Positions 54,484 to 58,361 of a stretch of DNA of 64,000 nucleotides are shown here, piece by piece. Source of the stretch: an uncultured Gemmatimonadales bacterium (GTDB lineage Bacteria; Gemmatimonadota; Gemmatimonadetes; Gemmatimonadales; GWC2-71-9); NCBI GenBank assembly GCA_963825055.1, contig CAWGSK010000011.1:32001-96000 (forward strand), in the 5' to 3' direction. The notes beneath the pieces are model-generated. The model had not been told where the DNA came from, did not search any database, and saw only the letters and a list, made by a program, of their open reading frames with translations. The stretch's first letter is position 1. Each line of letters opens with the position of its first letter. The position numbers and the translations under genes were made by a program.

Positions 54484-55725
54484 ATGAGGCGACACGTCGT
54501 CCTGCGCAGCCTGCTGGGAACGGCGCTGCTGGCCGGAGCGCTGCGGCCCGCCGCGGGTCAGACGCAGCCCCTGGATTCCCTGCTCCGCGCCCACCGCCTG
54601 CCCTTGTCCTTCGCGAACGACACACCGTCGGGCCCTGGCTGGAGCTTCATCGTGGAGCAGGCCTCGGCGATGCGGTTCGTGATGATCGGGGAGTCCCACT
54701 ACGTCCGCGAAATTCCGCTCTTCACCAGCCATCTCTTCCATGCGCTCCACGGCCGGGCCGGATTTCAATACCTGGCTGTGGAGGACGGGCCATGGGCGAT
54801 CGGCATGCTGATGCAGCCGGGCGTGCGCGGAGATCGAGCCGCGACCTATGCGCGCGTCGTCCGGTTCCCGAACGCGCTCCAGTTCCTGAATGACCAGGAC
54901 GTCGACCTGCTTGTCGCTGTGGGCGGGATGTCGTCTGGTGGCAGTAACGCGGTCTGGGGACTGGACCAGACCTGGGGCGTGATGCATATCCTGGAGCGGT
55001 TGCAGGCACTGGCAGCCTCTCCTGCGAAGGTGGCGGCCGTGGAACGGATAGCGGCCCGGGCGCGACCCGTGGAAGCCAATCGGCCGGACGAGAACAACCC
55101 CCGCTTCATCACACAGGGCCTGACGAAGGATGATCTCGACACGCTGCGCGCCGCCATTGCGGATGCGCCGCCCGAGGCGACCCGCCTGCTGGACATGCTC
55201 GAGACATCGTCCGAGATCTACGGCGCGCGCACTGATGGCCCCGCGATCTACCGGGCCAATGACCGACGCGAGCGATACATGAAGTCGCGGTTCGTCCAGG
55301 CCTACGATGCCGCGCGTGCCGCAGGCGATCCGGCACCGCGCGTTCTCCTCAAGTTCGGGCACTGGCACGCCATCCGGGGCGTACTCAACTGGGGCGACAT
55401 ACAGCCCCTGGGCACGTTCGTATCGGAGCTCGCTCATCGAGAGGGTGGGGAGTCACTGCACATCTGGACCGGACTGGTGGACGAGCCGGGCCGGTACTGG
55501 ACGCTCTACGATTCGCCGGACTACGTGCCGCTGGCCAGGGCCGGCAGTACGGACGGGTGGTGGGTGGTTGACCTGCGGGAGGTCCGGCCCCTGGTGGCAG
55601 CCGGGAAGGTGGACGGGGTCAACGACGAGATGCGGCGGATCATCTTCGGTTTCGATCTCGCCCTGCTGATCGGCAACGGCAACCGCGCCACCTACGACCA
55701 GCTGATGAAGGCCGCCGGGCAGTAA
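54484..55725 (+). CDS. Secreted protein, erythromycin esterase/ChaN-like fold
   Basis: FVMIGESH, YLAVE, WGLDQ, RERYM, KFGHWH motifs; signal peptide. Confidence 0.6.
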   Translation: MRRHVVLRSLLGTALLAGALRPAAGQTQPLDSLLRAHRLPLSFANDTPSGPGWSFIVEQASAMRFVMIGESHYVREIPLFTSHLFHALHGRAGFQYLAVEDGPWAIGMLMQPGVRGDRAATYARVVRFPNALQFLNDQDVDLLVAVGGMSSGGSNAVWGLDQTWGVMHILERLQALAASPAKVAAVERIAARARPVEANRPDENNPRFITQGLTKDDLDTLRAAIADAPPEATRLLDMLETSSEIYGARTDGPAIYRANDRRERYMKSRFVQAYDAARAAGDPAPRVLLKFGHWHAIRGVLNWGDIQPLGTFVSELAHREGGESLHIWTGLVDEPGRYWTLYDSPDYVPLARAGSTDGWWVVDLREVRPLVAAGKVDGVNDEMRRIIFGFDLALLIGNGNRATYDQLMKAAGQ

Positions 55726-55947
55726 CCCTCCAGCGGTTTTGCCGTCCGTGGCCAGCCTGGCCTTCGGTCGGCGAGGTCAGGTGACCTGGAGGGCGAGGCG
55801 CTTCGACGAAGCAGTCAGGTCGCAGGGGACAGCGGTGACATGCCCCACAGTCGCAGGCGAAACCTCGATGTACCTTGCTGTAACGGGGCGGCCGGCCCAC
55901 GCCCGGATCGCCCGAATGACCCCGGACCCCCACAGGAGCGCATTCTC

Positions 55948-56214
55948 ATGGAGATCATCGGCTTTCTCGTTTTCGGCCTGGTCGTCGGCGCACTGGCACG
56001 GCTCATCAAGCCGGGCCGGCAGAACCTGAGCCTGATGGCGACCCTGTTGCTCGGCGTGGTGGGATCGGTCATCGGGGGCATCATCGCCAGCTTCCTCGGC
56101 ACCGGCAGCATCATGGAGCTCAACGTCCTCGGCTCGATCGTCGCGATCATCTCCGCCGTGCTGCTGATCGGCGTGGCTGAGGGAATGTCGGGCGGGAAGC
56201 GCCCGCCGGCCTGA
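55948..56214 (+). CDS. GlsB/YeaQ/YmgE family membrane protein
   Basis: GLVVGALARLIKPG, TLLLGVVGSVIGG; AGGAG RBS. Confidence 0.88.
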   Translation: MEIIGFLVFGLVVGALARLIKPGRQNLSLMATLLLGVVGSVIGGIIASFLGTGSIMELNVLGSIVAIISAVLLIGVAEGMSGGKRPPA

Positions 56215-56219
56215 GAAGG

Positions 56220-56879
56220 GTGACGCCCTTCCAGCGGCAGGTGCGCGCCAGGGTCATCCAGGAGCTCCGTGACCGGTCACACGCGCCGTCGGTTGCGGAG
56301 CTCGAGGCGGGCCTCGATGCCACCGCAGCCGCGGTGCGCCAGGCCCTTCATGCGCTGGTGGATGCTCATCGGCTCGCGCTCCTCCCGGACTCCGATACCA
56401 TATGGATGGCCCACCCCTTCTCGGCTCTCCCGACCGTGCATGCCGTCCGCATCGGCAACCGCCGGTGGTATGCCAACTGCGCCTGGGACGGGCTGGCCAT
56501 CCTCGCGCTGCTCGGCGACGGAACGTTTGCAACCCGATGTCCCGCCAGCGACGAACCGATGGAGTACGAGGTCTATGGCCACCAGGTCCGCGGCACCGGA
56601 CTCGTGCATTTCCTGGTCCCGGCCCGTTCATTCTGGGATGATATCGGTTTCACCTGAGCCACCATCTCGGCGTTCCGGTCGGAACGCGCGCTGCACGAAT
56701 GGCTGGCATCGAAGGAGTACACGCCGGGTGCAACCGTGACCCCCCAGGCCCTCTACGACCTGTCGGTGGACTGGTACGCAAACCGGCTGGAGACCGACTG
56801 GCAGCCGGCGACGGCCGCCCAGGCACAGGCCATCCTCTCGCGCCATGGCCTGACCGGACCGTTCTGGACGCTGGCCTGA
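56220..56879 (+). CDS. merB: MerB-like organomercurial lyase, probable selenoprotein (Sec at TGA 56655-56657)
   Basis: N-terminal HTH, MAHPFS, ANCAWD (Cys/Asp catalytic pair), WDDIGFT-TGA, then 73 open in-frame codons (…WYANRL..DW…AQAIL..HGL.GPFW) to TGA 56879; SECIS-like hairpin follows the TGA. Confidence 0.85.
56658..56687 (+). promoter_or_regulatory. Putative bacterial SECIS element
   Basis: 12-nt spacer after UGA, then a perfect 7-bp stem GCGTTCC/GGAACGC (56670-56687) with GGTC apical loop. Confidence 0.75.
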
Positions 56880-56897
56880 CCATGATTCCCGGGGTCG

Positions 56898-58361
56898 CTA
56901 CGACCCCGGGCGCTGCAGGTATTCCCCGCTGAGTGAGTCGTAGACGCCGATCAGCGGCAACACGTTGCCCTGGTCATCGAACAGCCTGCCGCCCCACGAG
57001 ATCGGCTCCCAGATGGCCGCTCCCTTCCCCATGTCATCGGGAAGGCCGAATACGATGTCGTGCACCTCCCGTTTGAAGTCGGAATATTCCACCACGTTGA
57101 GCGGCTTGTGGTAGCGACCGGCCAGGTCGTGCAGGTTGGCGTTCAGGTCCTCCAGGGTGCCGTGCCAGCGGGGATAGTAGGACAGGCCGATGATGTCGAA
57201 CCGGACTCCCCGCGCCAGCATGTTGTCCAGCCAGAAGCGCGCCTCGGCGTTCTGCCCCCCAAGCGCGATGTGCATCATCACCGGGATGGCCGGATCTACC
57301 GCCTCCACGCCGTCCACTCCTGCCCGCAGCAGGCCCGCCAGCTGGTCCGGCTGGTCGATATGGCCGACCGGCCAGAGGAGGCCGTGATTGATCTCGTTCC
57401 CGACCTGGACCATGTCCGGAAGCGTGCCCTGCGCCTCCAGCGCCCGCAGTACGCGGGCCGTGTAGGTGCGCATGGAGTCCTGGAGCGCAGGATAGTCCGC
57501 CTCCGCCCACGCCAGCGGAATATTCTGCTGCTGCGGGTCGGCCCAGTAGTCACTGTAATGGAAATCGAGCAGAAGCTTGAGGCCGGCCGCCTTGACCCGT
57601 CGTGCCATGCTCAGGGTCGAGTCCAGCCCGCAGAAGCCGATGCCGGGGGAATACCCCTTCGGGTTCTCGGGATTCACGAAGATGCGCAGCCGGATGTAAT
57701 TGAAGCCGTGTCGCTTCAGGAGTTCGATCGCGTCCACCTTCTCCCCGTTTTCAAACACCCCCCCCGGTCCGCGGGAGAACCGGCCGGCCCGGTTTTCGAT
57801 CTCGGGGAGCCAGGAAATGTCCGCACCGATCATGCGATCGATGGGCTTGACGGTGGGCGGAAGCTGGTCGGACGCCGGGGTCATCAGCCGGACGTCTGCG
57901 GGGATGGTGTGGATTTCGTGCGCGCCCGGGTACAGGTGATCCGAGCGGGCTTCCACTTTTACCCGGTCCTGGGAGGTGCCGGCGCGCAGGCCCAGCCAGC
58001 GGGTCCCGTGGTCCAGGACCAGTGCGGCATACCGGGAACCCCCGGTGTCCGCCTCCATCGGCAGGGGCTCTCCGCCCCGCGACACGAGCGTGCCGTCCCC
58101 GGTCAGGTAGATCCGGACCGAGTCGCTCGCCGAGGTGATCTCCCGTCCCTGGCTGTCCGTCACGGCCACCCGGAGGCGGGTCGAGTCCGTCCCGTTGGCG
58201 CGGAGCGTGGTGCTGTAGCTCGTGAGCATGACAGCCAGAGGCGTGCCCGAGTCCACCCGGCTGGTCGCGGAGAAATCCGGCTGAGCGGCAGGGGCCCGGC
58301 CCCCGCATCCGGGCAGCGCGAGTGCCCAGAGCGCCGCCGCAGCGAACGGCAATGTCCTCAT
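56898..58361 (-). CDS. GH53 arabinogalactan endo-beta-1,4-galactanase with N-terminal Ig-like domain, lipoprotein
   Basis: LPGC lipobox; GADIS, RLRIFVNP, DFHYSDYWADP..Q, VQVGNEIN, GLSYYP.WHG. Confidence 0.9.
   Translation of the reverse strand: MRTLPFAAAALWALALPGCGGRAPAAQPDFSATSRVDSGTPLAVMLTSYSTTLRANGTDSTRLRVAVTDSQGREITSASDSVRIYLTGDGTLVSRGGEPLPMEADTGGSRYAALVLDHGTRWLGLRAGTSQDRVKVEARSDHLYPGAHEIHTIPADVRLMTPASDQLPPTVKPIDRMIGADISWLPEIENRAGRFSRGPGGVFENGEKVDAIELLKRHGFNYIRLRIFVNPENPKGYSPGIGFCGLDSTLSMARRVKAAGLKLLLDFHYSDYWADPQQQNIPLAWAEADYPALQDSMRTYTARVLRALEAQGTLPDMVQVGNEINHGLLWPVGHIDQPDQLAGLLRAGVDGVEAVDPAIPVMMHIALGGQNAEARFWLDNMLARGVRFDIIGLSYYPRWHGTLEDLNANLHDLAGRYHKPLNVVEYSDFKREVHDIVFGLPDDMGKGAAIWEPISWGGRLFDDQGNVLPLIGVYDSLSGEYLQRPGS

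Follow-up and report, generated by a model that had tools for sequence, protein, structure and literature searches.

A MerB-fold gene with an in-frame TGA codon that very probably encodes selenocysteine in an uncultured Gemmatimonadales bacterium

INTRODUCTION

Does a TGA codon in the middle of a reading frame end the gene, or does it encode an amino acid? The question is raised by a locus at 56220-56879 of a 64,000-nucleotide stretch of DNA from an uncultured Gemmatimonadales bacterium (assembly GCA_963825055.1, contig CAWGSK010000011.1, positions 32,001 to 96,000 of the forward strand), which was analyzed in full and is here called the window. An initial annotation, made from the letters of the window, had read the locus as a MerB-like lyase with selenocysteine (Sec) at a catalytic cysteine position and a selenocysteine insertion sequence (SECIS) hairpin downstream. 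Here, we report that 56220-56879 is very probably one intact gene for a 219-residue MerB-fold selenoprotein in which UGA codon 146 is read as Sec. The mid-gene "stop" almost certainly encodes Sec at the active site of a protein related to organomercurial lyase.

RESULTS

The reading frame continues past the TGA

The open reading frame (ORF) at 56220-56657 starts with GTG, encodes 145 amino acids, and ends with the TGA at 56655-56657. Past that TGA, the same frame stays open for 73 codons until a second TGA at 56877-56879, and 219 residues result when it is read through. The initial annotation had described an ORF halted at TGA 56655, a 73-codon open continuation, and a read-through protein of about 219 amino acids; the halt and the continuation are found at those positions, and the count of 219 codons is confirmed. 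The GTG at 56220 is aligned with the Met of 44 relatives in an alignment of 45 sequences. Features of the locus are collected in Table 1.

Table 1. Positions in the window of the MerB-fold gene, its parts, and the gene upstream
Feature	Position	Strand	Remarks
MerB-fold selenoprotein gene	56220..56879	+	219 codons plus terminal TGA; translation with TGA as U; very probable reading
In-frame TGA, U146	56655..56657	+	position of MerB Cys159, from alignment to 1s6l and 3f2g
Hairpin, SECIS type	56670..56687	+	7-bp stem, GGUC apical loop; inside the coding sequence, codons A-F-R-S-E-R
C87-A88-W89-D90 codons	56478..56489	+	from phmmer alignment to MerB chains
73 codons after the Sec codon	56658..56876	+	C-terminal portion of the MerB fold, then a short extension; omitted by gene callers
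Small membrane-protein gene	55948..56214	+	ends 5 nt before GTG 56220; Transgly_assoc 20.9 bits (cut-off, 25.3)

An in-frame TGA might also mark a broken gene, whether by nonsense mutation, by decay to a pseudogene, or by a sequencing or assembly error at 56655-56657, and indeed, gene callers stop there and database entries are 145 amino acids long. The base calls do not point that way. Four public runs, available as DNA contigs, come from a single soil-metagenome study, the source sample possibly among them, and contigs of three of the runs span 56655-56657 with zero differences. No RNA run is listed among the public runs. They show TGA at this codon, and not the TGC, TGT, or TGG that the initial annotation had named as refuting its proposal. 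We note that the only variants in the public-run contigs are at 56332 (C>A) and 56621 (G>T). The first, in runs X1 and X2, replaces Ala38 with Glu in the N-terminal domain, which is variable, and the second, in run X1 only, is synonymous. Both look like strain variants.

The TGA is conserved in relatives from many phyla

Relatives were sought by a pattern scan in one genome per species; 519 genomes encode one, and the best 80 loci were kept. At the column of residue 146 (U146), TGA is present in 79 of the 80 loci and TGC in one (L076, from an Acidimicrobiia metagenome-assembled genome [MAG]). Of the 79 TGA loci, 78 have a frame that stays open for another 71 to 86 codons. We note one exception (L043, at L043:3001-4164): its frame extends 242 codons beyond the TGA, where about 73 are usual, possibly because of a fusion or because a stop was lost. 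Across the alignment of 45 sequences, T145, the Sec column, R153, G170, W185, R189, G210, F215, and W216 are invariant. Since invariant residues lie 3' of the TGA, the part encoded after it is under selection at the level of protein. The TGA is thus shared by species-level relatives from many phyla, and the frame downstream of it is intact and conserved, both of which speak against a broken gene. We consider that explanation exceedingly unlikely.

Protein databases hold the family mostly as fragments. Nearly all top matches in a word-indexed protein search are exactly 145 amino acids long. Moreover, an exhaustive HMMER search of a large protein library gave 1,317 representatives at an E value of up to 0.001, and of the best 150, which were inspected, 83 stop exactly before the U146 column, all 83 with C87 and D90 retained. 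Another 59 of the 150 are full length, and their residue at the U146 column is Cys in 51, Trp in 2, Tyr in 1, and Gln in 1, with a gap in 4. Truncation by gene callers had been foreseen in the initial annotation, which had also looked to homologues for Cys or Sec at this column, and on both points the relatives agree with it. We read the alternation of Cys and TGA in these alignments as a classical Sec/Cys pair. Hidden by truncation in databases, the gene occurs in hundreds of bacterial species from soil and sea, and its carriers include MAGs of Acidobacteriota, Actinomycetota, Gemmatimonadota, Chloroflexota, NC10, and Marinimicrobia, among others. We note that NCBI applies the name "organomercurial lyase" to the 145-amino-acid products P0085, P0086, and P0111, from MAGs of Methylomirabilota, Rokubacteria, and Vicinamibacterales.

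A conserved and covarying hairpin follows the TGA

Between the TGA and the hairpin lie 12 nt. A perfect 7-bp stem is formed by GCGTTCC (56670-56676) and GGAACGC (56681-56687) around a GGTC loop (56677-56680), as the initial annotation had stated. When 76 hairpins were aligned, from the window and 75 TGA loci, the core T-T-C-C-G-G-T-C-G-G-A-A was almost invariant. Stem cells are paired in 95.7% of cases, compared to a mean of 83.4% in shuffled alignments, and none of 500 shuffles reaches the observed value. Compensatory changes on both sides are found at five of the seven pairs, in 54 cells where 13.9 were expected, and the covariation score of 0.382 (shuffled, 0.154) is equaled by none of 500 shuffles. 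As a control, the 3' partner was slid by one to three columns, and at most 63.8% of cells were then paired.

The codons under the hairpin bear the same mark. The loop and upper stem code for F-R-S-E, in which Arg is CGG and Ser is TCG in 75 of the 76 sequences each. The third position of both codons is G in all 76, though six codons are possible for each amino acid. At locus L050, a paired change of TTT with AAA is made at the cost of a Glu-to-Lys substitution. In the Cys form L076, a synonymous change of CGG to CGC abolishes the GGUC loop, and the stem is unpaired. Judged by its alignment, the hairpin behaves as an RNA element under selection, and what had been proposed as a SECIS in one sequence is conserved and covaries across relatives.

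Bacterial SECIS elements offer a comparison. In Escherichia coli fdhF, the SECIS is spaced 11 nt from the UGA and has GGUC at its apex. The window hairpin has in common with such elements a stem-loop within the coding sequence soon after the UGA and a GGUC apical loop. Several points nevertheless weigh against Sec insertion directed by this hairpin. The fdhF SECIS has a bulged U that is regarded as important, whereas the stem here is perfectly paired and without a bulge. An 81-nt stretch folds no better than its dinucleotide shuffles (z, -0.49; 57 of 200 fold at least as well). Such a result is expected at the 67.7% G+C of the window, and since the shuffle test was nonsignificant, folding energy is not used as support. 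An Rfam scan of 56500-56900 at E values of up to 10 gave four chance-level matches (E > 5), none of them on the hairpin. Finally, we infer selenium incorporation at U146 from sequence-level requirements, and we count this against the proposal as well. We take the decisive evidence that the TGA and the hairpin exceed chance to be comparative rather than from the single sequence.

The source genome encodes Sec machinery and uses TGA as a stop

Decoding of UGA as Sec takes dedicated machinery, which is encoded in the source genome, an assembly of 3.53 Mb in 35 contigs with a completeness of 87%. SelA was found at 413.5 bits, the SelB wing-3 domain at 66 bits in a 693-amino-acid frame, and SelD at 382.8 bits; the selD frame itself contains a TGA where Sec is usual. 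The tRNA-Sec was found at 71 bits and is called SeC by ARAGORN, with anticodon TCA. Thus, selA, selB, selD, and selC, the genes by which the initial annotation had proposed to check its reading, are all present. SelA was also found in all five other carrier genomes tested, that of the Cys form L076 included. Loss of the Sec trait was considered as the cause of the Cys form in L076 and was rejected, as that genome retains SelA. We note that at the selD locus (L003, C3:43969-47889), the TGA lies at about locus position 1531 and a GGTC-containing hairpin follows about 30 nt downstream. By this count, two or more genes of the source organism decode Sec and have a loop of the GGUC type.

The UGA might instead be decoded as Trp or Gly by an alternative code or as Cys or Trp by near-cognate read-through. 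Trp does occupy the U146 column in the full-length entries P0003 and P0004, as it does in two of the 59 full-length representatives. These entries are most simply explained as gene calls made with a table in which TGA is Trp, and the residue at the column in full-length relatives is predominantly Cys, not Trp. Moreover, TGA terminates 17 of the 26 longest nonoverlapping ORFs in the window, as well as the MerB-like gene itself, which excludes a code in which TGA is sense. A covarying hairpin after the codon and complete Sec machinery likewise favor Sec, and decoding as another residue is very improbable.

The read-through protein has a MerB fold with Sec at the Cys159 position

The read-through protein matches the Pfam MerB domain (PF03243) over residues 67-186, corresponding to profile positions 1-125 of 126, and the match spans the TGA. 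It scores 77.1 bits when read through and 47.3 bits for the 145-residue piece (cut-off, 27). By phmmer against PDB sequences, C87 and D90 correspond to Cys96 and Asp99 of MerB, and the TGA column corresponds to Cys159, which is the first residue of a C-C pair in 1s6l and of C-S in the C160S mutant 3f2g. Both assignments, C-A-W-D (residues 87-90) as the Cys96/Asp99 motif and Sec at the Cys159-equivalent site, had been made in the initial annotation from established knowledge of MerB and are upheld by alignment. C87, W89, D90, and U146 are invariant in the 45 aligned sequences. Alignment thus predicts a Cys87/Asp90/Sec146 triad.

Structure prediction gave the same assignment. An AlphaFold2 model built with the alignment of 45 read-through relatives is one compact fold, with a mean predicted local distance difference test score of 97.3 and a predicted template modeling score of 0.93. 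A Foldseek search of PDB returned MerB or MerB2 for all of the top 11 matches, at an identity of only 19 to 22%. In VIA-align comparisons, model residues 1-191 match MerB2 (5c17) with a Z score of 19.5 over 186 residues at a root mean square deviation of 2.9; Z scores are 14.3 to 14.9 for MerB crystal structures and 11.0 for the nuclear magnetic resonance model 1s6l. The structural match to MerB chains extends to model residues 190-204. At the N terminus, residues ~1-63 form a winged-helix-like domain that resembles the winged helix-turn-helix (wHTH) domains of LexA, MntR, and DtxR (Z, 8 to 11), and the read-through protein has weak Pfam matches to GntR and LexA_DNA_bind. Because MerB chains align from model residue 1, we take the wHTH-like domain as family architecture and not as the sign of a regulator.

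The fold bears on whether the locus might make two products, a functional 145-residue protein and a downstream stretch of 73 codons that is either untranslated or a separate small ORF. A 47-amino-acid ORF in the same frame does begin at GTG 56736 and ends at 56879, and termination at the UGA under selenium limitation would yield the 145-residue piece. The Pfam domain and the structural match to MerB, however, both cross the TGA, and the 26 codons between the TGA and GTG 56736 are conserved as protein. The 145-residue piece would lose the Cys159 equivalent and about a quarter of the fold. Moreover, Cys-form relatives are single full-length proteins. There is very little chance that two products explain the locus. 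We conclude that the pseudogene, two-gene, and alternative-code readings can be rejected, the first on the conserved TGA, the second on the domain that spans it, and the third on the use of TGA as a stop together with the Sec machinery.

The protein belongs to a clade distinct from SaoL

MerB-like selenoproteins in other lineages had been mentioned in the initial annotation, and one, SaoL, is described in a preprint by Haft and Gwadz (bioRxiv 10.1101/2022.07.06.499078). There, SaoL is a MerB-like selenoprotein with a C-U motif whose Sec aligns to MerB Cys159; it marks the nine-gene SAO locus and is carried exclusively by anaerobic Firmicutes, deltaproteobacteria, and spirochaetes. The window protein shares with SaoL (NF040728) the PF03243 fold, Sec at the Cys159 position, and the Cys96/Asp99 equivalents. 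The two also share truncation at the UGA in databases and rare Cys-form members.

The differences are larger. The window protein scores 26.8 bits against NF040728, where the cut-off is 140. The motif is T-U in the window protein and in the 79 TGA loci, whereas it is C-U in SaoL. About 73 residues follow Sec in the window protein, compared to a reported length of about 50 in SaoL. SaoL has its nine-gene locus in that report, whereas no conserved neighborhood was found for the window clade at 77 loci, the flanks of which were not scanned with Sao models. Carriers are MAGs of Acidobacteriota, Actinomycetota, Gemmatimonadota, Chloroflexota, NC10, and Marinimicrobia here and, as reported, only anaerobes for SaoL. 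We conclude from these comparisons that the window protein is not SaoL and belongs to a large stand-alone T-U clade, a second MerB-like selenoprotein family.

Compared to MerB and MerB2 (EC 4.99.1.2; 1s6l, 3f0o, 3f2f, and 5c17), the window protein shares the fold, the three active-site positions, and the N-terminal domain. It differs in having Sec for Cys159 and Ala147 where MerB has Cys160. No model of NCBIfam release 20 is passed by the window protein.

A description of the T-U clade was not found in the selenoprotein and MerB/organomercurial lyase literature, with supplements and some recent papers outside the scope and some sources available in part. In its available text, a 2026 inventory of prokaryotic selenoproteins has SaoL only under MerB-like and makes no mention of "PF03243," "Acidobacteri," or "Gemmatimonad" (PMC13188914). 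A 2022 review has one MerB-like entry (PMC9312934). The main texts of the GOS paper (PMC2398784) and the deep-Sep paper (PMC12013277) do not contain "MerB."

Cys forms and the gene tree

Cys forms in the wider family vary at a second active-site position. Among the 51 full-length Cys forms, the residue at the Asp90 position is Cys in 28, Asp in 18, Glu in 2, and Asn, Gly, and Ser in 1 each. The 28 with Cys indicate that chemistry varies in the wider family, which includes a C-x-x-C...C branch whose chemistry is possibly different. We note that the Cys forms P0144, P0162, and P0262 are 374 to 386 amino acids long and have an N-terminal extension of about 160 residues.

How the Sec and Cys forms are related was addressed with a quick maximum-likelihood tree of 73 Sec and 38 Cys forms, which omits 3 odd-length loci, 4 further loci, and 14 of the 51 Cys representatives. 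With a midpoint root, all Sec forms fall in one group of 75 rows, supported at 81 by the Shimodaira-Hasegawa-like approximate likelihood ratio test (SH-aLRT). Two Cys rows lie inside that group, and one of them is L076, whose sister is the Sec form L070 (SH-aLRT, 99%). The topology is consistent with Sec having arisen once and having reverted to Cys on occasion. Against this history stand the support of only 81% for the Sec group, the root, which is a midpoint root only, and the entries with Trp at the U146 column.

Phyla are intermixed in the gene tree, which suggests horizontal transfer of the gene. We note that near-identical neighbors in the tree (L051/L055, L058/L063, L068/L092, and others) come from MAGs labeled as different phyla, for example, Gammaproteobacteria beside Acidobacteria at 100% support. 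Such pairs point to horizontal transfer or to misbinned contigs.

Gene neighborhood

The neighbors of the MerB-like gene in the window are a small membrane protein, a convergent galactanase of glycoside hydrolase family 53 (GH53), a LuxR-type protein, and a DUF4199 protein. The small membrane-protein gene may be cotranscribed with the MerB-like gene; its match to Pfam Transgly_assoc is weak, and it is no conserved partner. A scan of 55700-57000 for promoter and terminator consensus sequences found nothing. In the space between the MerB-like gene and the convergent GH53 gene, we note a 10-bp G+C-rich inverted repeat at 56888-56910. Its 3-nt loop contains the stop codon of GH53, which is on the minus strand; the repeat is followed by no T-run and was not called by the terminator scan.

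DISCUSSION

How the protein would be made is, on this evidence, the standard bacterial mechanism. During translation, UGA codon 146 would be decoded as Sec, with the hairpin 12 nt downstream acting as a bacterial SECIS that recruits SelB with Sec-tRNA(Sec). SelA would make the Sec-tRNA(Sec) using selenophosphate from SelD. In the folded protein, an organometal such as methylmercury would be bound through its metal by the Cys87 thiolate and the Sec146 selenolate, and its leaving carbon would be protonated by Asp90.

Whether the protein is a lyase is a question separate from whether it is a selenoprotein. The conserved Cys87/Asp90/Sec146 triad argues for MerB-like protonolysis, and we consider MerB-type protonolysis of a carbon-metal bond the most likely chemistry, with about an even chance of being right. 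Several results count against it. The MerB models of NCBIfam score below their cut-offs (NF009710, 31.2 versus 193 bits; NF033555, 27.2 versus 200 bits). No MerA was found above the cut-off in the 87%-complete genome (376.4 versus 454.45 bits). Nor was a mer operon seen, since the window neighbors include no mer genes, though models for merR, merT, and merP were not run. When the flanking ORFs of 77 loci were compared all against all, no neighbor proved to be conserved, the largest family covering eight loci and none including the window. Thus, gene context gives no clue to the substrate. Finally, Hg-Se bonds are much stronger than Hg-S bonds, and release of the product could be slow without a MerA-like acceptor.

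The same results feed a serious alternative, in which the protein is a true MerB-fold selenoprotein and not an organomercurial lyase. It might act on another organometal(loid) or a nonmetal substrate, or it might serve in metal or selenium binding, sensing, or regulation. Besides the failed NCBIfam cut-offs for MerB and also for SaoL, the alternative draws on the missing MerA and the missing conserved neighborhood, and the MerB-like gene is the only MerB-family match in the source genome, with no other mer-type MerB beside it. The resemblance of residues 1-63 to wHTH domains and the weak GntR and LexA_DNA_bind matches would suit a regulator, yet the same N-terminal domain is found in MerB itself. 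The replacement of Asp90 by Cys in more than half of the Cys forms points away from a single chemistry, whereas none of the 45 aligned sequences departs from C87, D90, and U146, and C87 and D90 are retained in all 83 truncated Sec-type representatives. The expected strength of an Hg-Se bond likewise leaves room for other organometal(loid) substrates or for stoichiometric binding. Haft and Gwadz caution that Sec at the metal site of SaoL may shift the substrate range (bioRxiv 10.1101/2022.07.06.499078). We give a role other than organomercurial lyase a substantial chance, if one somewhat short of even.

What the clade might do in the environment depends on that chemistry. To our knowledge, MerB-type enzymes are the only well-understood enzymatic route for cleavage of Hg-C bonds. 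We tentatively propose, as a possibility that we hold to be rather less likely than its opposite, that the clade is an uncatalogued and very widespread selenoenzyme family for carbon-metal cleavage independent of mer operons, such as demethylation of methylmercury, and that its carriers are aerobic bacteria of soil and sea, with Acidobacteriota, Actinomycetota, Gemmatimonadota, and Marinimicrobia among them. It would be a second MerB-like selenoprotein family beside SaoL, and an ecologically different one. Gene callers and NCBIfam are without a model for it, and hundreds of database entries would be put right by a seed alignment of the full-length protein.

Methylmercury degradation is surveyed by counting merB genes. 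If the proposal is true, the activity would be invisible to such surveys because the gene is annotated as a 145-amino-acid fragment. If the clade is active, many soil and marine bacteria carry a selenium-dependent relative of MerB that has been missed or miscounted, since annotation cuts the gene to 145 amino acids and some of the fragments are named "organomercurial lyase." Ultimately, if the proposal holds, the availability of selenium would be tied to the turnover of organometals in the environment.

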